A DNA stretch of 64,000 bases from Ignavibacteriota bacterium (GTDB lineage Bacteria > Bacteroidota > Ignavibacteria > Palsa-1295). Of the stretch, positions 3,074 through 33,884 are shown piece after piece. The translations under genes were made by a program, and so were the position numbers. Position 1 is the first letter of the stretch. Every line of letters begins with the position of its first letter. The stretch lies in assembly GCA_963787835.1 (NCBI GenBank), contig CAWBEI010000002.1, forward strand, positions 320,001-384,000. Direction: 5' to 3'. The notes below the pieces were generated by a model. It was not told where the DNA came from. It was given only the letters and a program-made list of their open reading frames with translations, and did no database searches.

Positions 3074-4255
3074 ATGGCACAGGAAATACTCAACCCCGTC
3101 AGCGCTTCCACTCCAGCAAACGGCAGCACAAAAGCTGCACCTGCAAAAGCAGGCCTCGAGGACGTCGTCGCTGGAACCAGCGACATTTGTTTTCTCGATG
3201 GTAAGCACGGCATCCTCGCCTATCGCGGATATGACATCCACGATCTCGTAAAAGGCTCCTTCGAAGAAACCGCGTACCTTTTGCTCTTTGGCAAACTACC
3301 GAACGAGGCCGAATTAGCCGAGTTCAGCGGAAAGCTTGTTGCCAGCCGCAACGTACCGGCGCAAGTCAAGCAGCGCCTTTCGGAGTTCCCGCGCAACATC
3401 CATCCGATGGCGGCGCTGCGAACTCTTGTGAGCGAGGCGGGCCTCTATGATGTGCAGGCGGAAGATATGTCCCGCGAGGCTAATATCGAGAAGGGCATTC
3501 GGCTGATCGGCATGCTGCCGCTTCTCGTAGCTTATTTCGATGCCGCTCGCAATGGCCGAGCTTTTGTAGAGCCGAAAGATTCCCTCGGCCATGCCGCAAA
3601 TTATTTGTACATGTTGCTCGGAAAAGAGCAGGATGAGGAAATCGTTAAAATGTTCGACTCCGCGCTTACGCTTCATGCCGATCACGAGTTTAATGCTTCC
3701 ACCTTCACCGCGCGATGTATCGCGGCGACTCTTGCGGACATGTATTCTGCAGTAACCGGTGCGATCGGCGCACTCAAAGGCCCGTTACATGGTGGCGCCA
3801 ACAAGCAAGTAATGAAAATGCTGCTGCGCGTAGGCGATCCGGCAAAGGCGAAAGAATGGATCACCGATGCGCTGGCTCGTAAAGAGAAGGTCATGGGATT
3901 CGGGCACCGCGTCTATCGCACCGAGGATCCTCGCGCTACTCATCTCCGCAAATTCTCCGAAGCCATGGGCAAGCGTACCGGCGAAATGCAATGGTTCCAG
4001 ATGTCCAAGACCATCGAGGAATTTATTCTTCAGGAGAAAAAGCTGTACTCGAACGTCGATTTTTATTCAGCGAGTACGTATTACCTCATGGGTATTCCAC
4101 TGGATCTCTACACGCCGATCTTCGCGATCAGCCGCGTATCTGGATGGGTGGCCCACATTTTGGAGCAATACGCGCATAACCGCATCATTCGCCCGATGGC
4201 CGAATACACCGGCCCAGTCGATCAGGTGTGGCAGCCGGTGGAGGCGAGAAGTTAA
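3074..4255 (+). CDS. Citrate synthase / 2-methylcitrate synthase (short dimeric type)
   Basis: GLEDVVAGTS, LHADHEFNASTF, GPLHGGAN, MGFGHRVY, DPR and NVDFYS motifs. Confidence 0.93.
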   Translation: MAQEILNPVSASTPANGSTKAAPAKAGLEDVVAGTSDICFLDGKHGILAYRGYDIHDLVKGSFEETAYLLLFGKLPNEAELAEFSGKLVASRNVPAQVKQRLSEFPRNIHPMAALRTLVSEAGLYDVQAEDMSREANIEKGIRLIGMLPLLVAYFDAARNGRAFVEPKDSLGHAANYLYMLLGKEQDEEIVKMFDSALTLHADHEFNASTFTARCIAATLADMYSAVTGAIGALKGPLHGGANKQVMKMLLRVGDPAKAKEWITDALARKEKVMGFGHRVYRTEDPRATHLRKFSEAMGKRTGEMQWFQMSKTIEEFILQEKKLYSNVDFYSASTYYLMGIPLDLYTPIFAISRVSGWVAHILEQYAHNRIIRPMAEYTGPVDQVWQPVEARS

Positions 4256-22099: not shown

Positions 22100-22212
22100 T
22101 GTTTTATAATAGATTCGCTAAGAAGAGGAAATGACATGAGTATGTTCCGAATCATCTAAGAATGATACCAGGTCTTGGCTCGAACAATGCATCTAATATT
22201 TTTTTTTACAAA

Positions 22213-22292
22213 TTCATTTAATGAACTGTGGCGTTTCCGAGCCAATTTCGCCAATATGTCTTTTAGAAATAGGTGCCCTTTAAACGCAATTG
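22213..22292 (-). repeat. Second half of the bipartite repeat, left flank of the island
   Basis: Reverse complement CAATTGCGTTTAAAGGGCACCTATTTCTAAAAG...CACAGTTCATTAAATG aligns with 8539-8612. Confidence 0.7.
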
Positions 22293-22348
22293 GGTACTGT
22301 CCTAATTAGACTTGGTTCCTAAAACGATATAGTTTTTGTTGTTAAGGC

Positions 22349-22693
22349 TTACATCCCAATGCTTCCCATAAGTTGACGCACGATGCTCTGAATTAAATTC
22401 GGAGTGACTTCATTGAGCGAAAACGGTTGACCGGCATCTTGTTCAACGATAATTTTACCTTTACGAATCGAGAGCGGGATCATCCTTGTGATAGTAGGAG
22501 ACTCCGAATAGCCGGAAAAATGAATACGAAAACATCTCTCTTCCAGCCCATTTTTAGTTTCGGTAATAGTCAAGCTGCACCGATCTGAGTCGTGGATTAT
22601 TTCTGCGACAATATCGGGGTTTTGTACTAACCTCATTTTAATAAGGTCGAAGGTTGGAAGCATTATCTGGTTCGCACATTCATCAAAGTTCAT
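22349..22693 (-). CDS. Hypothetical passenger protein
   Basis: 114-aa ORF with upstream GGAAT-N17-CGTT motif. Confidence 0.55.
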   Translation of the reverse strand: MNFDECANQIMLPTFDLIKMRLVQNPDIVAEIIHDSDRCSLTITETKNGLEERCFRIHFSGYSESPTITRMIPLSIRKGKIIVEQDAGQPFSLNEVTPNLIQSIVRQLMGSIGM

Positions 22694-22807
22694 ACTCTCG
22701 GAACGCCAGAGATTCGAGTGGCATTCCCATCCCCACGGGCAGGTTCGGTGCTTTCAGGTTTTCCGATTGAGGAAACGATACGAGGAATATTGCCGTAAGA
22801 AGAACTG

Positions 22808-23152
22808 ATGGATTATCGTGGTCAAGAAGCATATTATGATGAAAAAGGAACACTTCGCCGAAAAAGCGACGGCGTGAGGATTGTTCTCACTCTAAAAGAA
22901 AGAGAGCAATATAAAAAAGAAGGCTATCTTTCTAACGGCGTAGAGACCGAGCCTCTTAGAGAAGAAAAATTGCAACGTCAGGGTTGTATGCTTTTATTGC
23001 TGAAGGATAAGTCACTGAACGACAAAGAAACTGAGCGGCGCATCAGCGCATTCGCAAAACAACTTATTAGAGAGAACAAAGGCAATCCTGACTTCTGGGT
23101 CATTCGCGCCCCAGAGGACAATACACAACCCTCTCATTGGACGGTTTTATGA
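22808..23152 (+). CDS. Hypothetical passenger protein
   Basis: 114-aa ORF after GAAAC-N17-CGTA motif. Confidence 0.55.
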   Translation: MDYRGQEAYYDEKGTLRRKSDGVRIVLTLKEREQYKKEGYLSNGVETEPLREEKLQRQGCMLLLLKDKSLNDKETERRISAFAKQLIRENKGNPDFWVIRAPEDNTQPSHWTVL

Positions 23153-23373
23153 TCGTCGGATGGAGCGACATATTTGTCTAAAATCTTGGTAATCTCATCT
23201 TCTGCGGAGCATTCTAAGCAAATGGCATAGTAGGTAAGGGCGAACGACTCTTCGTTTTCATATTCTCCTTTAACCGATTTAACGACCTCAACGGTATGCT
23301 TATCGTTAGTTGTGCATTTCGTATTCGCAAATCGTTTTTTAATTTCAGGGGGAATGCGAGGGATTGTTTCCAT
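23134..23373 (-). CDS. Small hypothetical passenger protein (Cys/His, CxxC)
   Basis: 79-aa ORF co-directional with the IS1595 transposase. Confidence 0.45.
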   Translation of the reverse strand: METIPRIPPEIKKRFANTKCTTNDKHTVEVVKSVKGEYENEESFALTYYAICLECSAEDEITKILDKYVAPSDDHKTVQ

Positions 23374-23379
23374 ACAAAT

Positions 23380-23565
23380 TCAACATTCGCTGGAGTTAAA
23401 GCATTCTTCAGGATCGAGCGCGCTTATTCGAAGCCGCTTTGCTCCATCGTGGCTTTCTTGCATAATACTCCGCACGGCGCGCCCGAAGCTCTTCGGTTCT
23501 TCGGAGGTCGTGTTTGTGTTTGGCGCGGAGTTCATTGGAACGGGTTGATCGAGGAGTCTTTTCAT
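23380..23565 (-). CDS. Small ORF coupled to the IS1595 transposase
   Basis: ATGA overlap with the transposase stop. Confidence 0.4.
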   Translation of the reverse strand: MKRLLDQPVPMNSAPNTNTTSEEPKSFGRAVRSIMQESHDGAKRLRISALDPEECFNSSEC

Positions 23566-24482
23566 AAGGATGCTCCGGTCAATTCCTCATACGTCAGCCG
23601 TTTGCCGAAGAGCATCGTGGCCGCCTTGATGAATCTGCCGGAGTCATTGTCCTTTCTGTTATCGTACCGGAAACCCTGTTCGTCAAGGTAGCGGTCAAGA
23701 TGATAGGGTTCAACGTGGATGTACGTGCCTTTGAGGGCGCGCTTCACCAGCGACCAATAGTTCTCAATGGTATTCGAATGCGTGTTACCCTTGACGTATT
23801 CACCGCGTTTGTGATTGACAGTCGAGTGATCGTAAACGACACCGAGTGCCTTGTACGAATTCGCTTCGTCACTGTAAAGGGTTGAGCCGACCTTCACGGT
23901 TGCAAGCACTTGATTCTGAAGCGTCCGTGCGTGAGTGTTCTCAATGACGCGCGCCTGTACTTTGCCACCCCGTTCAACGGCCCCGAACACGATGGTCTTA
24001 CCATCGCTTCCGCCACGGGATTTTACTTTGTTCGCGTGACGATTGCGCTCGGCACCGCCGAAGTAACTTTCATCTATCTCGACAGAACCCGTAAGTTTTT
24101 CCCCCGCATCCTTGGCAATACTTTCTCGGATCCTATGCCCGACATGCCATGCGCTCTTTTGTGTAATTTCTAAGGCCCGTGCTATTTCGTAGGAGCTAAT
24201 TCCATTCTTACAATTAACGACCATCCACACCGCAGGAATCCATTTTGTAATGGGAATTGGCGAGTTGTGCATGACCGTCCCGGCCTTCAAGGAGAACTGC
24301 TTCTTGCAGTCCCGGCATTTGAAGGCCGGACGAGTACGCATTCCGTAGATTGCTGTGGAGCCGCACTTTATGCAGCATCGTTCACCGCCATGCCAATAAA
24401 GCTCCGACAGGAATTCGACGCATACCACTTCCGAGGAGTAGTAGCGTACCGCTTCGAGTAGGCTTTTGGGTGTTTTGAGCAT
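23562..24482 (-). CDS. IS1595-family (ISXO2-like) DDE transposase
   Basis: Zn ribbon CIKC...CRDC; VEIDESYFGG, YSDE, VNH, HSNTIENYWS..KR, YLDE..FRY, KRLTYEEL. Confidence 0.92.
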   Translation of the reverse strand: MLKTPKSLLEAVRYYSSEVVCVEFLSELYWHGGERCCIKCGSTAIYGMRTRPAFKCRDCKKQFSLKAGTVMHNSPIPITKWIPAVWMVVNCKNGISSYEIARALEITQKSAWHVGHRIRESIAKDAGEKLTGSVEIDESYFGGAERNRHANKVKSRGGSDGKTIVFGAVERGGKVQARVIENTHARTLQNQVLATVKVGSTLYSDEANSYKALGVVYDHSTVNHKRGEYVKGNTHSNTIENYWSLVKRALKGTYIHVEPYHLDRYLDEQGFRYDNRKDNDSGRFIKAATMLFGKRLTYEELTGASL

Positions 24483-24979
24483 GATCGTGAGTTATTAGGA
24501 ACGTTCCCGGTGGAAATTGGATTAAATAGAAATACCCGATCATTAATAATAATGATCGGGCAAGTTGTGGCCCAAGCCACACGATTAAATTGTGCCAGAA
24601 TTCGCGTTCTGGTAGTAGCATGATGAGTGCGCGGGGGCGTTCTCGTCATGTACCCGGAGTGTGATTACTCCGGGTTTTCTTTTTCCGAATGAAGAAGCGT
24701 GGTCGATGCGGCTCATACGGAAAGAAAATCACATAAAAAACCCCAAGATATTACCTGAAAAACTCGCTTGCTGGCGTTGAGTCCCGACCGAAGCCGGGTA
24801 GGTAAATCTTGGGGTCAAACCCAAAAAAGTTTCAGTTGTATCGCCAGCAAGACGATGTAGGCTTTCACCTGACTTGGTTGCTAACGTATCATTACACTGT
24901 TCGTTTCAGTTCGCATGAAAAAAGTGGAAACTCTGAAAGCGGATTTGGGTTTCCATCGTGGCCTTTGGAACTAAATGGG

Positions 24980-26506
24980 TTATTTAGTAATCGCCAGATT
25001 GATGTAGCTCACCATATCTCCCACCCTAACGCGGCATACATATTTTCCCGATGGGAGCGTCTCCGTGCCGAGCGAAATGGATTGTGGGCCTTCGTTTGAA
25101 TAACCGTTCATAACCTCCATTATTTGTTTTCCCAGGGGATCATAAATAGCAATCTGCGTAAAGCTGGATTCTACTGTTGTAAATTTCAAGGTCATTCCAC
25201 CGCTTGAAGGATTTGGGAAAACTTCGGGGTTAAACCAATCGGGCTGTTGAGGGGTGGAAACACCCAACGTCGTATCTGAATGAGTCGGGCAATAAAGTTT
25301 CGCGAACATGCAGGAATCATCGCTCCCAAGTCCGCGTGGAGCGATGTTAGGTTGCGCCTGCTTAGATCCCATCAACATCCAATATCCTGGTATGCTACTC
25401 TTACAATAATTATAGTTATTAACGCAGGTGTCTCCACGAACAATCGTATCTGGATGTAGTAACCCGAGCCAATGGCCGATCTCATGCTCGATTATTTCCT
25501 TAAAGCTGAAATCATAAAACCCTTGATTTGCCGCGCCGGGGTCTGGGGCAGGTCCCGTGTACCATCCCATCAATGGACTCTGGTGTAGCTTGTAACCAGG
25601 AATAGGCTGAAGGGCATCGTTTCCATTTTGGTAGAAGAAGCTATTTGTTGCATTGTAAGTAATAAACCGATAATTTGAGTTCGGACATGCGCCTCCATCG
25701 GGGCATCCCGGATGCCCATACGTCCATGCAACAGGATAGCCGGCTTTTTTCAATCCAGATGCTTGATAAGTTCCTTGAAAGTGAAGGATATTAGTGTCCG
25801 GAATTATGAGGATACAGCAGGTTGTGTCGCCAGTAAATCCGCAAATTCCAAGCCACGCATTTAGATCGGATTGAGCATCAGAACTTGCACCACCCGTGTT
25901 CCAAACCTGATCGTAATGCACATCTGAGCCGTTGGCGTATGATATAGAGTCACTTATGTAAGTGTTGTATCTTTCTATATCGATTTCAAAGATTGAGTAA
26001 TCTTCTCTATCGCAGTCATAAACCGATAATGCCTCTTCATATTCTTCGTCATAGTCATAATTATCACGATTAGGAGGAACATCTGGTTCATGTCCATCAT
26101 GCACTTGGTGGAAATCGGTATCCCATTCGTCTAACCCGGCATTATAGGTTCCGGTATCCAAGACCTCACCCGGATCGGGAATGCAGCCGGAGAAAACATC
26201 ATAAGTATCTGGTAACGAAACAGGTTCTGGCGGCTCTGGAACAGGATCGGTCGGTTGATCGAATACACTCGTGTCAGGTGGAATTACATTTACACAACCC
26301 GGTATTTTCGATTTGGAGGGTGTGTAGCTTGGTGGTGGGTCATTCGGGTTTGTCGAACATTGCACGCCTTGAGCACCTGTAACGAAACAAAATACGTAAG
26401 GGAAACTCTCATTCCCGCATGGAATAGGGCAATGTATCGCCTGTGCCAACCCAATAGACGAAACGAAAAGGGAAGCAGCGATTAGAAGAAGTGGAAAAGA
26501 CTTCAT
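24980..26506 (-). CDS. Secreted metzincin-type zinc metalloprotease with T9SS CTD
   Basis: Signal peptide; HEIGHWLGLLH (HExxHxxGxxH) with a downstream Met; CTD VFPNPSS...LPSGKYVCRV. Confidence 0.8.
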   Translation of the reverse strand: MKSFPLLLIAASLFVSSIGLAQAIHCPIPCGNESFPYVFCFVTGAQGVQCSTNPNDPPPSYTPSKSKIPGCVNVIPPDTSVFDQPTDPVPEPPEPVSLPDTYDVFSGCIPDPGEVLDTGTYNAGLDEWDTDFHQVHDGHEPDVPPNRDNYDYDEEYEEALSVYDCDREDYSIFEIDIERYNTYISDSISYANGSDVHYDQVWNTGGASSDAQSDLNAWLGICGFTGDTTCCILIIPDTNILHFQGTYQASGLKKAGYPVAWTYGHPGCPDGGACPNSNYRFITYNATNSFFYQNGNDALQPIPGYKLHQSPLMGWYTGPAPDPGAANQGFYDFSFKEIIEHEIGHWLGLLHPDTIVRGDTCVNNYNYCKSSIPGYWMLMGSKQAQPNIAPRGLGSDDSCMFAKLYCPTHSDTTLGVSTPQQPDWFNPEVFPNPSSGGMTLKFTTVESSFTQIAIYDPLGKQIMEVMNGYSNEGPQSISLGTETLPSGKYVCRVRVGDMVSYINLAITK

Positions 26507-26545
26507 TGTTTGCTCCTTGTGGTTTTGGGAAGTGAATATGAACGA

Positions 26546-27592
26546 TTATGGATGGAGAATATTATAGATTCTCGCGCGAAGTCTTGACTTCCAGACCGCA
26601 ACCGTTAGACCACCAGAAATGGAGGCACCAAGTCCGAAATCGTCGTTAGGATCAACCACATGACCGCTTACGACTCTATACATCGCTCCTTGATTTCCAA
26701 AGACACCCCAATAAGGTTGAATGCTGAAATAGCCATTGGCGGTATCAATTCCAATTCCTGCGATTCGAAGGAACACGATGTATTCTCCTCCCGGCCTGAT
26801 CCACCATCCGGTCGAATCAGACAAAGCAGGCGAAAAAGGCATTTCATCACCTGCAATTGCACTTGCCCATTCGGGTGAATATTCAAATTGAATACACGCA
26901 CCACTATCAGCGCGAACTGCATACGTTGGCCAAGTTGAAGCATAGCTCATGGTTGTAATCTCATTGGATTTCCGGTGAGTGTGCATGTCTTCGCCGATAC
27001 AGAGTGGAATTTTTTGTCCCTTGATTTCATCAAGGATTGTGGAATTAACCAATACTATGTGTGGGGTAATGTTATCTGACGAGTTATACTTGACGATGGT
27101 ATCCCCGATAGTCACGTCCGCGATAATATCGGAAGCAAGAATAAAACCTGTACGACCGGTATCGCCTATACCATTTCCAATTTGATTAGCTAATATTGGA
27201 ATTGAGTTACCAGGGTTACCTTTATAGTGCCAAGAATAATCTGGGTGCCCTCCAAGAGGCCATGAACTGATCTCCCATTGATATAATGATAACGGATTAT
27301 CGTCACTAACTTTGTAAAGCATCTCGGCAAGGAACGTCATCGTGTCATCGTGCCCAAGATTCCCGATCCATTTGTTGATCAAGTTCCATTGCGTTGAGCG
27401 CATAAGTTCATCGGCCCAAAGGTATGCGCTTGCCACGTCGGAAGGTTGACTATCATATAGTGGTGGGACGGTCGTGAGAAGTGGGAGGCTATACTTGATT
27501 AAACCTGGATAATTCGGCCCCGTTTGGCTTCTCACAGCAGGTGCGGCAAAAAAACCTGCCCAAAGAAAGAGGATGAACATGATTCGTTTCAT
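26546..27592 (-). CDS. Secreted hypothetical protein upstream of the protease
   Basis: Signal peptide MKRIMFILFLWAGFFAAPAVRS; 39-bp gap to the protease gene. Confidence 0.7.
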   Translation of the reverse strand: MKRIMFILFLWAGFFAAPAVRSQTGPNYPGLIKYSLPLLTTVPPLYDSQPSDVASAYLWADELMRSTQWNLINKWIGNLGHDDTMTFLAEMLYKVSDDNPLSLYQWEISSWPLGGHPDYSWHYKGNPGNSIPILANQIGNGIGDTGRTGFILASDIIADVTIGDTIVKYNSSDNITPHIVLVNSTILDEIKGQKIPLCIGEDMHTHRKSNEITTMSYASTWPTYAVRADSGACIQFEYSPEWASAIAGDEMPFSPALSDSTGWWIRPGGEYIVFLRIAGIGIDTANGYFSIQPYWGVFGNQGAMYRVVSGHVVDPNDDFGLGASISGGLTVAVWKSRLRARIYNILHP

Positions 27593-27937
27593 AAAAACCC
27601 TTCCAGAAATGAATATTTGAAGTATGAAATTCAACTAACAGCACAAAGATACAACACTTTTTCCATCAAGTTTTAGATTTGATTTTCCGAATTGCAGGAG
27701 AATAGTAGGGTATTTGCAGGTGCTTTTTTCAAATGAAATGGGCGTTATCGTGGCTCTTTTCAACGGTTCATCGTGCATGATCAATTATTATGGAGGTTCT
27801 TATGATAATCGTGTTGCGAAGCATATTTTGTAAGAAAGCAACGATGGAGTAAGGAGGATAGAATCGGTGTTCGAAAGAAAGTCCGATGCTCACATGCCAA
27901 TGAAAAGCAACGGACTTCACCTCAAACAAAAATCATA

Positions 27938-28144
27938 ATGCTGAATGTACCGAAAACACTACTAAAAGAATTCGACGATATTATGAAAGCAAGCAAATGT
28001 GGTAATGACCGCTCCCACGTTATTTACGGAGATATAAACTGGGTTGTACGCGATGCGGCTGGCCTAAATCGTTACGATTGGTATATTAGATGTAGCGAGA
28101 ATGGGTGTTCCTTCACGGATCATGGTACTATCTGGCGGCCTTGA
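27938..28144 (+). CDS. Small hypothetical passenger protein (Cys/His-rich)
   Basis: 68-aa ORF, overlaps the convergent ORF. Confidence 0.35.
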   Translation: MLNVPKTLLKEFDDIMKASKCGNDRSHVIYGDINWVVRDAAGLNRYDWYIRCSENGCSFTDHGTIWRP

Positions 28145-28366
28145 ATCGAGGGGTAAATGAACTTCATTCCATTCTTCATTGGTTTGAGGCATAACATCGA
28201 AAAGCGGATCGTCTTTGAATTTTTCAACAATGTACTCGATAAATTCTTGATCTTTTGGACATTGCAATACCGCACCCGTGTGATAAGGATTCCCTCGCTC
28301 GGTGAATCGTGTTTCCCTCAGACGAAAATAGATGGCAACGTATTCTTTTTGTTCATCAGAAATCAT
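28064..28366 (-). CDS. Hypothetical passenger protein
   Basis: Shares its 35-bp upstream element with 22808-23152. Confidence 0.5.
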   Translation of the reverse strand: MISDEQKEYVAIYFRLRETRFTERGNPYHTGAVLQCPKDQEFIEYIVEKFKDDPLFDVMPQTNEEWNEVHLPLDSRPPDSTMIREGTPILATSNIPIVTI

Positions 28367-28509
28367 AATTCTACTTAAGGTAACGCCGCTTGTATCGTTT
28401 CCTCAATCGGAAATCCTGAAAGCGGCGTAACTTTATTTGGAAACCTCTGGTTGATTCTAATATATTAGTGCCATTTGACTTAGTTCCTAAAACGATATAG
28501 TATTTGTTG

Positions 28510-28758
28510 TTAAGAGGTTTTCGCTTCAGCCATCACAAAAACTCGATGACGGTAATTACCTTGTTCGCCTTCTTGGAAAAGACAGTGATTAACGCGGGAG
28601 ATTATGTAGTCCATCTTGCTATGATTAAATTCTTCACCGACTGATGGAATGACCGGTGCATGGTTGAGTGGGTATTCGCACTCGAACTCATACATAATCT
28701 GACCGCCTTCACGGAGAACGTATTGCACGGCGTATGTTACGCTTTTGATTGAATCCAT
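28510..28758 (-). CDS. Hypothetical passenger protein
   Basis: 82-aa ORF with TGAAC-N17-CGTT motif and the same flanking modules as 22349-22693. Confidence 0.55.
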   Translation of the reverse strand: MDSIKSVTYAVQYVLREGGQIMYEFECEYPLNHAPVIPSVGEEFNHSKMDYIISRVNHCLFQEGEQGNYRHRVFVMAEAKTS

Positions 28759-28887
28759 TGTGTTGTTGTTTCCTTTCGACCCTCGGAACGCCTTAAATTC
28801 GTGGCTCGTTCATGTCTCCCGAATGCGTTATTATCATCGAATATGGCGTTGAGCCACACTCCTGAAATTATTCACAATTAAAACAAT

Positions 28888-29175: not shown

Positions 29176-29809
29176 TTATTGTAACACAGTATCCCATCCC
29201 CACGCACTGTTCGCAATCCCTGCCATTTGAGCCGGAGTGCAACCGATCGAGGAATGAAAGCGCATGAAATTGTAATGATAGAAGTGAAGATTCACTGCGG
29301 CTCGTAGGTTATCGAGCTTCTTGCTCCAAGCGTTTGTCAGCCTTGTCAGTCGCCTCAACCCCATACGCATCGTGAGGTTTTGCCTCTCGATGTAGCTGGT
29401 GGAAATATCTTCTACCAGTGGTGCGCCGAATATGACTCGTAGCGTTACTCCGACCAGACGGGCGGGTGAGTAACGACGCTCCCCAATGTACGCCTCGGAA
29501 TACTTTTTGTGAACTTGTCCGTAATCAATGGCACTCTTTCCATAGACCTTGTAAATCGCACTCACATAAGCATTCCAGGCATCGGTGCTGAGTTGGTAGC
29601 GGGTTTCGATGCGATCTCGAAGCTGTTCGAGAAGCTTCATAGCACTCCACCCATCACGCTTGCCAACATAGAATGCTGGTACGAGCTTGCTATCTGCATC
29701 AATGGCAACGAAGGTGTAAGCGTCACCATATTCCGCTTTATCAGCTAACGGATCTACACGTTTCTGTTTCTTTCCCACGTATCCCCAGACTTCATCGAGC
29801 TGTATCCTT
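29176..29809 (-). pseudogene. 5'-truncated IS1-like DDE transposase
   Basis: IQLDEVWGYVGKK, STD, ISTSYIERQNLTMRM; homologous to 30285-31139 but the HTH N-terminus is replaced exactly at the TIR starting at 29810. Confidence 0.85.
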
Positions 29810-29860
29810 GGTAGTGGCTCAGTTTGGGAACTTTCGATATTTTTATACTGAATTATGTTT

Positions 29861-30058
29861 ATGAACACACAAAAGATCGAAGTCGGCGATATGGTGAAAT
29901 TGAAAAACGGCGCAACGGTATTAATGTCCGTTCACGAATTGAACGGACATGGGATAGAATGCGATTGGTTAGATAACGAGAATAGATCGCAAAGACAGAC
30001 CTTTGCACCTGCCCAACTTATCCGTTTAACCGATTCCCAAAATAGTCAACGAGAATGA
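29861..30058 (+). CDS. YodC/DUF2158-like small protein
   Basis: IEVGDMVKLKNGATVLMSV...IECDW...QTFAPAQL. Confidence 0.7.
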   Translation: MNTQKIEVGDMVKLKNGATVLMSVHELNGHGIECDWLDNENRSQRQTFAPAQLIRLTDSQNSQRE

Positions 30059-30212
30059 GTTGCTCCGTTATGAAGGCACCTTCTTGGAGTTCCCCGTTTT
30101 TGCTGAACCATTGGCAAATCCAATGATCTCCTGAGCCTTTGCGATTAACGCTCATTATTGGAGTGCCCTGAATGAATCCAAGATGGACTAAAGAGCCGGG
30201 TTTTATTTCCAT
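30018..30212 (-). CDS. Second YodC/DUF2158-like small protein
   Basis: IKPGSLVHL...GTPIMSV...WICQWF...EGAFITEQL. Confidence 0.65.
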   Translation of the reverse strand: MEIKPGSLVHLGFIQGTPIMSVNRKGSGDHWICQWFSKNGELQEGAFITEQLILVDYFGNRLNG

Positions 30213-30243
30213 GATTGTAATAGAATTATGGTTATGAAATAGA

Positions 30244-30271
30244 ACGGGCTGGGGTGAAGTCCCAGCCCGTT
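30244..30271 (-). terminator. Hairpin after the transposase
   Basis: AACGGGCTGGG-GTGAAGT-CCCAGCCCGTT. Confidence 0.6.
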
Positions 30272-30284
30272 TGCGTTAACACGC

Positions 30285-31139
30285 TTAGTCAACCGTCAAA
30301 TCCCGTGTGTCAAGCAGGTCAACCAAGTCACCAATACTCCAAAGGTGATTCGTGAGTCCCGCCTTCATTGCAGGGGTCATTCTAAGGGACTGGTGAACCC
30401 TCACGAAATTGTAGTGCATGAAGTGCAAAGCGATTGATGCGATATGATGCTCAACGCTTTTCGAGAACCCATTCGTGAGCCGGGTAAAACGGCGCATTGA
30501 CATTCTCATTGTGAGGTTTTGACGCTCAACGATTGATGTAGAAATGTGATCGGCATTCGGATTTCCGAACTTCGGCTGTTTCTCAATGCTAATAACTTCA
30601 CCGGGGCTGTATCGCACGTCTGGCGAGTTGCCAGCACCTTTGCCATATTTCTTTACAAGCATTGCATAATCTACACCGTTGACGCCGAACGACTCACGAA
30701 CGGCGGTAAAATAATTTGCATGTGCGTCCGTTGTCAACTGAACGCGGTTAGCGAGACGGCTCGCTACATCACTCATGAACATATAGGCGTACTCTCCGTC
30801 ACGCCGTCCTACGAGCCATGAAATGATTAATTTGGAATCTGTATCAATGGCAGTCCAAGTCCACTGGGAACCAACATTGCCGGAAGCTCTCTCACCGTCC
30901 GTGCAATTAGCGTCTTTCTTTCCTACGAAGCTCCAAATCTCATCGGCCTCAACACGTTGCGCCGTGACACCCTTAACATTCTCATCGTGGAACTTCTCAC
31001 ACGCCGCACCTAAGTCAAGAAGGAGCTTAGAAATGGTATTCCGCGACACGTCAACCATGCGCGAAATCGCACGGATGGAATTGCCCTCGACAAGTGCCGA
31101 TACGATCTGAATTTGTTTGTCTCTGTTTAGCTTGTTCAT
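30285..31139 (-). CDS. IS1-like single-ORF transposase (HTH + DDE, no Zn finger)
   Basis: LVEGNSIRAISRMVDVSRNTI (HTH); VEADEIWSFVGKK; LTTD; HISTSIVERQNLTMRMSMRRFTRLTNGFSK. Confidence 0.9.
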   Translation of the reverse strand: MNKLNRDKQIQIVSALVEGNSIRAISRMVDVSRNTISKLLLDLGAACEKFHDENVKGVTAQRVEADEIWSFVGKKDANCTDGERASGNVGSQWTWTAIDTDSKLIISWLVGRRDGEYAYMFMSDVASRLANRVQLTTDAHANYFTAVRESFGVNGVDYAMLVKKYGKGAGNSPDVRYSPGEVISIEKQPKFGNPNADHISTSIVERQNLTMRMSMRRFTRLTNGFSKSVEHHIASIALHFMHYNFVRVHQSLRMTPAMKAGLTNHLWSIGDLVDLLDTRDLTVD

Positions 31140-31215
31140 GATAACTTAAACGGGTTACCCTAAGCATAAGTTTCAGTTTGTTTATTATTCTTCAAACAAA
31201 ATAGCATTCGTTAAG

Positions 31216-31470
31216 AAACCCGCGCCGGAACAATCCCGGCGCGGGTATGGTTAGTATAACCACGAGAGAAGCCGCCCGCCCGCAAAAGCAAACGGCTCCC
31301 CCTCCGTAACGCAAAAGCGTTACGCCTTTCACGGTAATCGTAAAAAGGGTGCTGGTGAAGCCACTAAAGGCTCTAACCGATTCCACGAAGTAGAAAGCGA
31401 CAGGAATCAGGCCACCAGCAAAATCAATATTAGGGGCTAATTTCGCCGTAGGAAGCGATTTTAGCCCTTT
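31216..31470 (-). ncRNA. Candidate structured non-coding RNA inside the transposon
   Basis: Six consecutive stem-loops, e.g. CGTAACGC-AAAA-GCGTTACG and a GCTGGTG...CACCAGC multiloop, ending in a terminator-like CCCGCGCCGG/CCGGCGCGGG hairpin. Confidence 0.45.
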
Positions 31471-31926
31471 TTATTCATCTTGTTTCGCTAAATTCCATTC
31501 TTTTAACCAGATTAAGTCGCCCTGACGCACGATTCTATCATCTTGTCCAACGCCGATAGCGAAGTTTCGGAATTCAAAAGTCTTGTTTCCGCTTCCCTTA
31601 TAGCCGTTTTTAACGAGGTGGTCGTATGCTTTCCTGAGAGAGTATTTGGCTGTTTTCTGTATTTTTAATAGCGCATAGGTCGCATTCGATGCCGTCATGC
31701 CAGTATAGAGTCCGGGCGACGGTAGATCGCCCTCATCCTCTTCATTCTCGGAAGCATCCTGTTCATCTTCATTTTCATCCGAAATCTCAATAAATTGTAG
31801 GAGTTCATCCGCCACGCCGGGTTTTAAGAATGAGGCAAGCCGATCATTCTCTTCCTTCAAAATCTCAATTTTTCCATCATTTTCAGCGATTTTAGCCCTA
31901 ATTTTGCTCTCTGAAAAGGTTATCAT
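31471..31926 (-). CDS. Hypothetical passenger protein (coiled coil, acidic linker, possible winged-helix C-terminus)
   Basis: Start MITFSE (31926) or ATG 31992; KIEILKEENDRLASFL heptads; DENEDEQDASENEEDE linker. Confidence 0.6.
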   Translation of the reverse strand: MITFSESKIRAKIAENDGKIEILKEENDRLASFLKPGVADELLQFIEISDENEDEQDASENEEDEGDLPSPGLYTGMTASNATYALLKIQKTAKYSLRKAYDHLVKNGYKGSGNKTFEFRNFAIGVGQDDRIVRQGDLIWLKEWNLAKQDE

Positions 31927-31995
31927 GATTTTCTCTGAATTATTTTTTGATGTTCTCGGTTCTATGGTTGCTACAAAATGCAAAACAGCCATTAG

Positions 31996-32072
31996 TAGCG
32001 GGGCGGGGGATCGAACCCCGCTCCTCTGGATCGAAAGTCCAGTGACCTACTGCCAAGTTAGTCTATCCCGCT
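31996..32072 (-). tRNA. Atypical tRNA-Glu(UUC)-like gene
   Basis: Cloverleaf: acceptor AGCGGGA/CCCCGCT, D stem GACT/GGTC with GG in a 12-nt loop, anticodon arm CTGGA-CTTTCGA-TCCAG, T arm CGGGG-TTCGATC-CCCCG, discriminator A followed by CTA. Confidence 0.8.
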
Positions 32073-32332
32073 GTTGAACTTAAAGGAATTGACCGAGTAA
32101 GCCGCCAAGCTTTTACCCGGTCTTTTTCGTTTAAGTGCACCCAACTAACCTTAACGGGTTCGAAAAGATTCATTAGTTAAATGGAAATAATGTAGTTAAA
32201 ATTTTAACGCCTCATTTCAGCAACAACAACTCGAAGCGTAAGACGTAGCTCAATACAGTTTTCAGCGCGTCAGATAAGGACGGAATCGACCCGAACGCGC
32301 CTGTATGACAATGAATAATTCCCACCACAGAT

Positions 32333-32566
32333 TCAATCTGTTTTCTTCTTCCACCGGGCTTTAGCCGCTTTTTTAGCAATCTCAGACCGCTTCTCGGCAC
32401 TTAGACGGGTCGCCCGAAGCTTTCCGCCCTCAGAACCCTTTTTTACGAATACTTCGCGGGGAATGGCTGTTTCTTCCTCGGTAGGCTCTATTTGACCCGT
32501 TGCATATTGCATGATCTTAAAAGCGCGTTGGTTTGGGTCACGGGGTAGTTTTTTGGGTTTTATCAT
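32333..32566 (-). CDS. Small basic transposon-associated protein (PRDPNQ / GGKxRA..LS..RSEIAKKAA.ARW family)
   Basis: Motif I recognise beside this type of IS1-like transposase (often auto-annotated histone-H1-like or RNA-binding); first gene inside the right TIR. Confidence 0.75.
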   Translation of the reverse strand: MIKPKKLPRDPNQRAFKIMQYATGQIEPTEEETAIPREVFVKKGSEGGKLRATRLSAEKRSEIAKKAAKARWKKKTD

Positions 32567-32650
32567 AACCCCTTAACGTTGCTTAGGGGGTAAGCATTGC
32601 TATAAAAAGTATAAAACACGAAACAATGGTTCCGAAAATGAGCCACTACC

Positions 32651-32731
32651 TGAATTGTCATTTAATGAACTCACCTCTTTCTTTCATGAACTTATGCAAT
32701 ATTTGTTCTTCCAGAAATAGGTGCTCTTAAT
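32651..32731 (-). repeat. First half of the bipartite repeat, right flank of the island
   Basis: 75/81 identical to 8460-8540; the 50 nt next to the TIR are identical. Confidence 0.9.
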
Positions 32732-32789
32732 ACCACTCTCTAATATACGACACTTTTCCCAGACGCCACGAAATTCGAAATTTTCTTTG

Positions 32790-33047
32790 ACCTCGGAGGC
32801 AGACGGCTCAAGCCATGCGGTGTAGCCTTGACCTTTAGGTCACAGTGTGATTTCTTTGTGCTCCGCGACCGTGGCCTGAAGGTCACGGCTATGCCGCTTC
32901 TTTCATTGGGGCGTGATTTGATCTGAGCCAATCATCGAAACCATCACACGAATCACATAAATCATAGTTCAGACTCGGAGGCGGACGACGCAAGCCGAGC
33001 AGTGTAGACGTGACCTACAGGTCACGGTATAAATTCTTTGCGCTCCG
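32790..33047. repeat. Cluster of GTAG-type REP-like units with ~75-bp direct repeats
   Basis: CTCGGAGGC.GACG.C.CAAGCC...GTGTAG.C.TGACCT..AGGTCAC.GT...TTCTTTG.GCTCCG near 32792 and 32974; inverted unit near 32869-32891. Confidence 0.7.
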
Positions 33048-33201
33048 GTCATAAATCCCCGCACGGACTGCTCCGCTCCCATATCTTCCACCACCGCGCG
33101 TTTAAATGTGGTTCGTCCGAGTGTTAGGATTGCCCTGAGCCTGTCGAACGGGTCTGGGAACCTGGGGCGTTCGGTGCCGTTCTTGAGTCCTCCAGCCTCC
33201 C

Positions 33202-33884
33202 GCTCCGTAGGAGCGCAATATTTGTAGCCCCCGGTTTCAACCGGGGGTTGAGGAGGGCACAGGAATCATAAGCTCCGGAGGAGCGGCATATCACCCCAGC
33301 GCGGTAAAATCGAACAAGTATCGTTCATCGTATGGAATACCAAACGCTTCGAGCAGCGCAATATACTCCTCACGGAATGTATGCTTTTTATGATGCGCTT
33401 CCTGATTCTGAATGTACGCGATGACATGGTCTAATTGGGAACGCGAATAGGAGAATGCGCCAAAACCCTCCTGCCAACAAAAATGCCGCGTCATCCACGA
33501 CTGCTCGTTCAGCCAGAGCGTTGAACTCGCCTTGATGTGCTTGACAAGATCCGAGATCGATTGATCGGGCTTCAAGCCAACCAGAATGTGGATATGATCC
33601 GGCTCGTTTTCAATTGCAATGAGTTTATGTTTGTGATTTTGAATGATACCCGTAATGTATTTTTGAAGTTCCTCTTTATGCTCGCGTGGGATGAGGTTTT
33701 CACGACCTTTGACAGCAAAAACAAGATGAATATAAAGTTGTGTGTAGGTATTGGCCATTTGGGTGATATTACGCTCCTACGGAGCTAAGGGGTATTATTC
33801 GTGCTCCGCAACCCCCGATTAAAATCGGGGGCTACAAAGATTAGGCTCCTAATGGAGCCATGTAATATTCCGCTCCTGGAGCTT
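33202..33884 (-). mobile_element. Y1-transposase locus flanked by inverted REP-like palindromes (RAYT-like layout)
   Basis: Left GCTCCGTAGGAGC...GTAGCCCCCGGTTTCAACCGGGGG; right CCCCCGATTAAAATCGGGGGCTAC...GCTCCTAATGGAGC. Confidence 0.65.
33291..33758 (-). CDS. tnpA: IS200/IS605-family TnpA (Y1 HUH transposase)
   Basis: YIHLVFAVKGR, PDHIHIL (HUH), FCWQEGFGAFSYS, YIQNQ. Confidence 0.9.
   Translation of the reverse strand: MANTYTQLYIHLVFAVKGRENLIPREHKEELQKYITGIIQNHKHKLIAIENEPDHIHILVGLKPDQSISDLVKHIKASSTLWLNEQSWMTRHFCWQEGFGAFSYSRSQLDHVIAYIQNQEAHHKKHTFREEYIALLEAFGIPYDERYLFDFTALG

Follow-up and report, generated by a model that had tools for sequence, protein, structure and literature searches.

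The window, the whole 64,000-nucleotide stretch of Ignavibacteriota DNA that we analyzed (contig CAWBEI010000002.1, positions 320,001 to 384,000), holds an IS1-family transposon with cargo, inside which lies a candidate RNA of 255 nt. On the minus strand the element reads: small basic gene, tRNA(UUC), 151-aa gene, candidate RNA, transposase and two DUF2158 genes (Table 1). The transposase matches NCBIfam NF033558 (E 2e-18, 67 bits) below the 100-bit cut-off, which places it in a distant IS1 subgroup. The start codon of the 151-aa gene is settled by two homologs (38% and 30%); a relation to HARE-HTH is suggested tentatively, by 38% of one Atlas cluster. The element’s tRNA is irregular in its A1-U72 pair, an A-C mismatch in the acceptor stem, a long D loop and G37, and the host genome has its own tRNA-Glu(UUC).

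Table 1. Features of the transposon, of the candidate stretch and of the cargo slot in relatives (window positions unless a locus is named).
Feature	Position	Strand	Remarks
IS1-family transposon with cargo, 2841 bp	29810..32650	-	terminal repeats, transposase
Left terminal inverted repeat, 22 nt, 91%	32629..32650		
Right terminal inverted repeat	29810..29831		
Small basic protein, 77 aa	32333..32566	-	near left end of many related elements
Hairpin and T run upstream of tRNA	32091..32127	+	terminator-like on plus strand
Extra irregular tRNA, UUC anticodon	31996..32072	-	
Cargo gene, 151 aa	31471..31926	-	coiled coil, winged-helix-like
Candidate stretch	31216..31470		
Hairpin H1 and TTTTT	31434..31472	+	predicted intrinsic terminator of plus-strand (antisense) transcript
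Three-way junction, tRNA-sized	31347..31420	-	predicted fold
Junction closing stem, 7 bp	31419-31413/31357-31351	-	U-A pair beyond stem
Four back-to-back hairpins H4-H7	31247..31347	-	G-U-rich; H6 17 bp with 9 G-U
Hairpin H8, 13 bp, GC-rich, and UUUCUU	31213..31246	-	terminator-like; weak U tract; missed by simple terminator scan
Structured units, 5' to 3'	H1 31467-31434, junction 31420-31350, H4 31347-31325, H5 31324-31305, H6 31302-31265, H7 31263-31247, H8 31246-31218	-	
Promoter-like site TTGTTT-18-TAGCAT	31178..31207	+	points into structure; ends 10 nt from H8
Conserved block before transposase start	31140..31183	-	family promoter region; looks shortened in window copy
IS1-family DDE transposase, 284 aa	30285..31139	-	Pfam PF03400, above cut-off
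Two convergent overlapping small DUF2158 genes	29855..30212		cargo between transposase and right end
Y1 transposase/REP-like region	32792-33050, 33202-33296, 33291-33758, 33761-33851		
Mismatched cargo tRNA, L022	3784-3857		
Mismatched cargo tRNA, L029	3756-3840		
Mismatched cargo tRNA, L035	3766-3918		
Mismatched cargo tRNA, L075	3845-3916		
Mismatched cargo tRNA, L080	3590-3661		
Mismatched cargo tRNA, L104	995-1086		
Mismatched cargo tRNA, L124	2776-2857		
Mismatched cargo tRNA, L144	2679-2751		
Mismatched cargo tRNA, L160	2781-2863		
Mismatched cargo tRNA, L173	2540-2627		
Mismatched cargo tRNAs, L217	3469-3719		

The element, its relatives and its surroundings

Relatives were gathered from genomes (the best 80 of 583), from 300 genomes of the class and from viral contigs (64), giving 174 distinct loci after duplicate removal, with the window counted, and thus 173 relatives. 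The element-end motif is present at both ends in 89 of the 174 distinct loci, and 71 of 174 have an exact 8-bp duplication. The two flanks of the window element show no 8-bp target duplication, and a second IS1-like transposase gene (29176-29809) has its 5' end cut off by the right end of the element; together, the missing duplication and the truncated gene suggest an adjacent deletion. Pieces of the element occur in four public DNA runs, all from one study that possibly includes the source sample, and do not count as independent support; among the public runs listed as containing the element, none is from RNA.

Single-ORF, passenger-carrying elements of the IS1 family are called ‘transporter IS’. 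The window element resembles them in its single IS1-similar DDE transposase, its GGTAGT-type terminal repeats around the cargo, the 8-bp duplications found in its family and the variable cargo on both sides of the transposase; it differs in its lack of an 8-9 bp duplication and in a cargo to which an irregular tRNA and a putative folded RNA other than a tRNA belong. Within the open-access literature, our searches found no IS1 element described as carrying a structured RNA other than a tRNA, or as keeping its tRNA cargo under antisense control.

A family block before the transposase start, mostly leaderless, is shared by the relatives. An earlier sequence-only reading of the stretch had placed the candidate directly upstream of the transposase promoter, but a link between the two does not hold: the relatives share only ~70 nt before the start codon, and what lies beyond is exchangeable cargo. 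An element from the same genus (L185) tracks the window to about 31207 and diverges beyond, which argues that the candidate is itself exchangeable cargo and not a promoter or leader of the transposase.

Several other features were seen in the window and among the relatives. The non-coding sequences that border the island on its two sides (32655-32735 and 22205-22285) are similar, and several diverged copies of 32651-32790 occur in soil contigs; sequence of this type is possibly a preferred insertion site or a small repeat. A Y1 transposase gene (IS200-like, REP-associated type) lies just upstream of recA; it is flanked by GTAG-hairpin repeats in inverted orientation and by clustered REP-like palindromes. 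The region 22305-28805 contains an IS1595-family transposase (23562-24482) and duplicated blocks of 42 nt and 23 nt; at 24980-26506 it also has a gene for a secreted, metalloprotease-like protein that ends in a T9SS tail. In a host-class subgroup of relatives (L104, L106, L109, L111, L112, L116 and L117), a conserved small helix-turn-helix-like gene with its own promoter is positioned ~370 nt before the transposase, directly upstream of it. A conserved block of ~330 nt upstream of the transposase in L104-L117 was set aside when it proved to be a small protein gene.

Fold and strand bias of the 255-nt stretch

The stretch is an exceptionally folded, strand-biased, orphan non-coding element. The region 31200-31490 folds at -112.6 kcal/mol on the plus strand (z -7.5) and at -134.3 kcal/mol on the minus strand (z -8.4), with 0 of 200 shuffles as low in either case. 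The stretch itself reaches -124.4. Among 1500 windows of 255 nt that were matched to it in GC and drawn from the host genome, the mean is -74.9 (sd 7.1) and none equals it. Since the region had been selected for its folded look, these ranks are somewhat flattered, but selection cannot account for a gap of 7 sd. When the folds of the cargo slot at 161 distinct loci were compared with shuffles (10 each), the window ranked first at -47.6 kcal/mol, and the next locus stood at -36.5. All 14 stem words that the sequence-only reading had picked out, and both arms of its GC-rich hairpin, are in place (31433/31461, 31351/31413, 31359/31369, 31379/31403, 31325/31339, 31305/31317, 31268/31293, 31218/31236), and its proposal of a structured non-coding element with back-to-back stems is borne out by the comparisons with shuffles and genome windows.

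That reading had also favored the minus orientation ‘weakly’, by way of two A-C mismatches. The orientation stands; the qualifier and its basis do not, as 16 of the 91 pairs in the minus fold are G-U, against 2 of 85 in the plus fold. For the core (31240-31425), the difference dG(minus)-dG(plus) is -22.6, compared with -10.9 +/- 4.0 in shuffles (0/300). The bias is concentrated in the middle block (31240-31350), with z -5.1 on the minus strand (0/200 shuffles) and a non-significant z of -1.2 on the plus strand. The strands are about equal for the three-way junction (z -3.6 minus, 2/200 shuffles; z -3.3 plus). H1 (31434-31467) folds better on the plus strand (z -5.0 vs. -3.7) and is followed on that strand by five T, so it looks like a plus-strand terminator and not part of the minus-strand structure. 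Folded as DNA, the stretch has a slightly better z on the plus strand (-7.7 vs. -6.7), which makes the strand bias specific to RNA pairing rules. We regard it as probable that a folded minus-strand RNA of some form exists.

Between the predicted terminators H1 and H8 there are five structured units (~175 nt). Mean pair probabilities of the helices in the minus fold are 0.78-1.0, except for the weak base of the junction’s long arm (0.49). This arm carries an 18-nt loop, and the second arm is a 5-bp hairpin with a 6-nt loop, flush with the 3' strand. A U precedes the 7-bp closing stem, and the 3' side continues with ACCC and five U. In the predicted fold, the closing stem and the small hairpin would form a 12-bp acceptor-plus-T-like helix (7 + 5 bp), followed by a discriminator and CC. 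On a public contig (X3-21, depth 3.6) the C run at 31298 is one base shorter; this version folds better (-55.3 vs. -51.5), with H4, H5, H6 and H7 directly abutting. The window’s C run may be a homopolymer error, or the low-depth contig may be the one in error.

Searches for homologs were negative over a wide range of sources. In agreement with the sequence-only reading, which had recognized no ribozyme or riboswitch consensus, the Rfam scan it had proposed gave no match to any family (best 12-19 bits, against gathering thresholds of 43-80). DNA searches found the stretch as a single copy in its own genome, by which an origin as a repeat or REP was rejected; they returned one 31-nt match in 60 relatives, confined to the promoter region, and four matches of 22-28 nt in 400 genomes of the class, all of them lacking both the structure and a related transposase. 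No homolog of the stretch was found in phage and plasmid collections, or by blastn and nhmmer on the related loci. Two single-sequence covariance models (R1 and R2), which are insensitive tools, matched only coding DNA or a tandem repeat in 179-190 sources and 140 genomes of the class. Pattern scans gave 8, 1, 0 and 2 matches in viral contigs, which we take as chance, and 2 in metagenomes, both coding.

Other structured blocks were seen among the relatives. In three of them (L007 ~1330-1560, L028 ~3660-3880, L142 ~2700-2900), a structured non-coding block of ~230 nt separates the divergent promoter from a divergent cargo gene. The block is shared by L007 and L028, which are 69% identical over a 656-nt upstream region, and has no Rfam match; it is a better target for covariation analysis than the candidate RNA.

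Irregular tRNAs and opposite-strand signals in the cargo slot

In relatives, irregular tRNA genes fill the slot of the candidate on the same strand. A tRNA-like gene lies beside the transposase in 16 of 173 relatives, and in 14 (~8%) it is upstream of the transposase, on the transposase strand, 74-415 nt before the start; 4 of these 14 loci are between both element ends with an exact 8-bp duplication. Many other relatives have protein genes in the slot. One locus found by another query (L217) has three tRNA-like genes in a row, one of them with degenerate D and anticodon arms. Judged by the best host-tRNA alignment and by eye, many cargo tRNAs combine a body of one type with an anticodon of another: Arg-type with GCU or ACU, Leu-type with UCC or UUA (the ochre anticodons of L124 and L160), Ser-type with UAU (L104, L117 and L173), and Gly-type with broken anticodon arms. 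Four loci (L029, L035, L144 and L160) show the order gene, A run and hairpin, tRNA, T run. The order in the window is alike: gene, A run and H1, 14 nt, a 69-nt module with the 7-bp stem, ACCC and five U. An A run and hairpin also follow the cargo genes of three relatives that have no tRNA (L188, L191 and L195).

Irregular tRNAs of soil bacteria, located near transposons and toxin-antitoxin systems, have been described by Mukai et al. (PMC5389517); some of them are toxic or play no part in translation. Allo-tRNAs, and irregular tRNAs arranged in polycistrons, are the subject of a review (PMC7609411). The likeness to the allo-tRNAs of PMC5389517 is that sister elements carry irregular tRNAs in the candidate’s slot; the terms ‘IS1’ and ‘transposase’ do not occur in the supplement text that was searched. 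Unlike allo-tRNAs, the candidate lacks a cloverleaf, an anticodon loop and a T-loop, and has four extra hairpins. We rejected membership among the tRNAs or allo-tRNAs, as the junction forms no cloverleaf with D arm and anticodon arm and has neither a T-loop nor a D-loop consensus. ARAGORN and Rfam made no tRNA call for it, and its best score against the host tRNAs (19.8) is below those of all 18 cargo tRNAs (23.1-48.5). Pairing of the candidate with the element’s own tRNA was also considered and set aside: there is no special complementarity (rank 6 to 44 of 47).

The transposase of the window element largely avoids GAA, the codon of the element’s irregular tRNA(UUC), which was picked beforehand from the anticodon. 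Only 1 of its 12 Glu codons is GAA; among 44 genes with GC3 of 0.40-0.60 (window counted), the next lowest GAA share is 0.39 and the median 0.66, and eight host genes use GAA for 196 of 312 Glu codons. No other codon of the transposase deviates as strongly as GAA (p = 2e-4; next, 0.04), and 2 of 52 matched genes have some codon that is equally or more extreme. The 151-aa gene shows no such avoidance (10/17). In the simplest reading of this pattern, the irregular tRNA would misread GAA or cause stalling there, and the transposase would have evaded this effect. Across the relatives, no consistent general link of transposase codons to the cargo anticodon emerges: the codon is enriched in L217 and L146, neutral in others, and depleted in L144 as well as in the window.

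Signals on the opposite strand accompany the cargo tRNAs. Past the 3' end, the opposite-strand promoter score is higher at 15 cargo-tRNA loci (the 14 slot tRNAs and L217) than at 46 host tRNAs (Mann-Whitney p = 9e-5), and an upstream opposite-strand terminator occurs at 7 of 15 cargo-tRNA loci vs. 5 of 46 host tRNAs (p = 0.006); both p-values are inflated by the relatedness of the cargo-tRNA loci, and the hosts also differ. One relative (L022) has a perfect sigma-70-like promoter on the opposite strand. Pairs of cargo tRNA and antisense RNA are thus possible in the relatives. The candidate stretch has both signals, the promoter-like site at 31178-31207 and the predicted terminator H1, which bracket it as in several relatives with tRNAs; a full-length antisense RNA is therefore likely to be made opposite the candidate. 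The -10 region of this site is common to the same-genus elements L185 and L188, and also to a site upstream of an ORF in L002. The site has a mediocre score of 9.4, which is not significant when its segment is shuffled (p = 0.6), and is missed by a generic promoter scan. Divergent promoters are common to these elements, and the one in L185 drives protein cargo; finding one at the candidate is therefore no proof of an antisense role.

A probable transposon-borne RNA and the alternatives

The stretch is likely to encode a new RNA that is carried by the transposon, probably alongside an opposite-strand copy. Our main reading, to which we give a probability of roughly 45%, is that the minus strand encodes a tRNA-like effector RNA under antisense control. 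The RNA would be transcribed as the 3' part of a cargo unit that includes the odd tRNA and the winged-helix gene, with transcription stopping at H8, ahead of the transposase. Bacterial RNase P cleaves hairpin-like substrates without a T loop, including 4.5S, CI and C4 RNA, as described in PMC5499578. In the candidate, it could cut at 31420/31419, after the U that precedes the 7-bp stem stacked on the 5-bp hairpin and followed by ACCC, and so free a tRNA-sized RNA of ~70 nt, with or without the four hairpins. From the divergent promoter (31178-31207), an antisense RNA of ~260 nt would run to H1 and pair with the sense RNA over its full length. In the last and weakest step, the RNA would mimic or act as a decoy for a tRNA, like the mismatched tRNAs of sister elements, and interfere with translation once antisense control is lost; the transposon would then benefit from an addiction or stress module that consists of RNA alone.

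The main rival, which we regard as possible though doubtful, is that the stretch is a structured 3' end or insulator with no separate RNA function, in which H1 (plus strand) and H8 (minus strand) are back-to-back terminators that, with stabilizing hairpins, stop cargo transcription from running into the transposase and divergent transcription from entering the cargo gene. The terminator-like form of the two hairpins on opposite strands fits this, as do the A run and hairpin after cargo genes of the tRNA-less relatives and the failure of homolog searches to find conservation of the stretch; however, the five units between the terminators fold significantly by themselves (the junction and the middle block alike), and no slot among the 161 loci is equally structured. 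Rather unlikely, in our judgment, is a functional RNA on the plus strand, a discrete small RNA of ~260 nt running from the divergent promoter to H1, with the minus-strand fold incidental. Promoter-like site and terminator bracket the stretch almost exactly, the -10 region recurs in L185, L188 and at the L002 site, the junction folds about as well on this strand and the DNA fold is better on it. Against it stand the middle block, which loses its significance on the plus strand, where H6 would hold 9 A-C mismatches, a strand asymmetry that no shuffle attained, and the relatives, in which 14 of 16 cargo tRNAs are in the slot on the transposase strand.

Two comparisons with known systems, and one with the element’s own ends, lead to readings of still lower probability. 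The C4 RNA of P1/P7 (RF01695, RF03163) and the CI RNA of P4 are also found on mobile elements as leaders of stacked hairpins (~250 nt) with a three-way junction, and are processed by RNase P without a T loop, which is predicted for the candidate; the layout of C4 leaders is described in PMC2864571, and the P1 c4 leader folds with z -5.2. A captured or decayed phage leader of the C4/CI antisense or attenuator type, whose junction RNA pairs with a target in its own transcript and controls a downstream gene, is nevertheless quite improbable. The small loop of the junction could pair over 6 nt with the loop region of H7, as read from the sequence, but the best same-strand loop pairings are of 6-12 nt, the longer ones with G-U, and the long closing stem, the single-stranded a' linker, the a'/b' target pairing layout and a regulated ORF before the terminator are all absent. 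Covariance models for C4 and c4-a1b1 gave no match at the locus (E 10) or genome-wide among the candidates scored (150/325 and 150/1262) while finding the P1 control (68.8 and 51 bits), and membership in either family was rejected. Type I toxin-antitoxin loci have a fully overlapping antisense RNA, and the candidate is like them in its predicted convergent, overlapping transcripts, each with a terminator, and in its heavily folded sense strand; GGAGG at the base of H6, read from the sequence, would suit a toxin-like mRNA whose minus-strand fold hides a small ORF (31386-31192 or shorter), with the antisense as antitoxin. We consider this highly improbable. Conservation of the 64-aa ORF at 31192-31386 had been named beforehand as grounds for giving up the RNA, and it was not found: a search of 5.8 billion proteins gave a single candidate for the frame, none scored, and hence no homolog; the frame matches no Pfam family, and it depends on the C run, the shorter version of which cuts it to 44 codons while improving the fold, although at depth 3.6 that version may be an error. 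The frames listed show no strongly hydrophobic segment; the ORF was dropped as a product, and, unlike at type I loci, the RNA itself would be the effector. Finally, the RNA or DNA might carry the core of the terminal repeat and direct or titrate transposition. The suggestion that loops track insertion sites gains little from the data, its sole hint being an 8-nt word of the element’s own terminal repeat at 31368-31361, in the small hairpin of the junction, which 33 of 1000 shuffles equal; this is a single, marginal, post-hoc match that lies half within a stem, and the 173 relatives are without this RNA while clean 8-bp duplications are still found at 71 of the 174 loci. IS1-type DDE transposases are not known to be guided by RNA, and such a role is scarcely probable at all.

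The tRNA-like effector RNA under antisense control thus remains our preferred reading for the window. A broader version of it, that this IS1 subgroup carries RNA-only addiction or defense modules, each with a translation-interfering RNA and a full-length antisense neutralizer, and that the purge of GAA from the transposase is a form of immunity, seems to us unlikely. The interfering RNA would be a mismatched tRNA in most elements and, here, also the tRNA-mimicking junction RNA with its G-U-rich tail.

The candidate RNA is a single example, with folding energy and strand bias as the basis for its structure. Mismatched tRNAs have been described near transposons and toxin-antitoxin genes (PMC5389517), and the 2.8-kb element, short enough for cloning in one piece, offers two handles on their purpose: the sense and antisense RNAs predicted for it, and the avoidance by its transposase of the codon that its cargo tRNA reads. 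If expressed, the candidate would be an RNA with a marked fold that belongs to no known family and is carried by a simple transposon at the place where mismatched tRNAs lie in its relatives.
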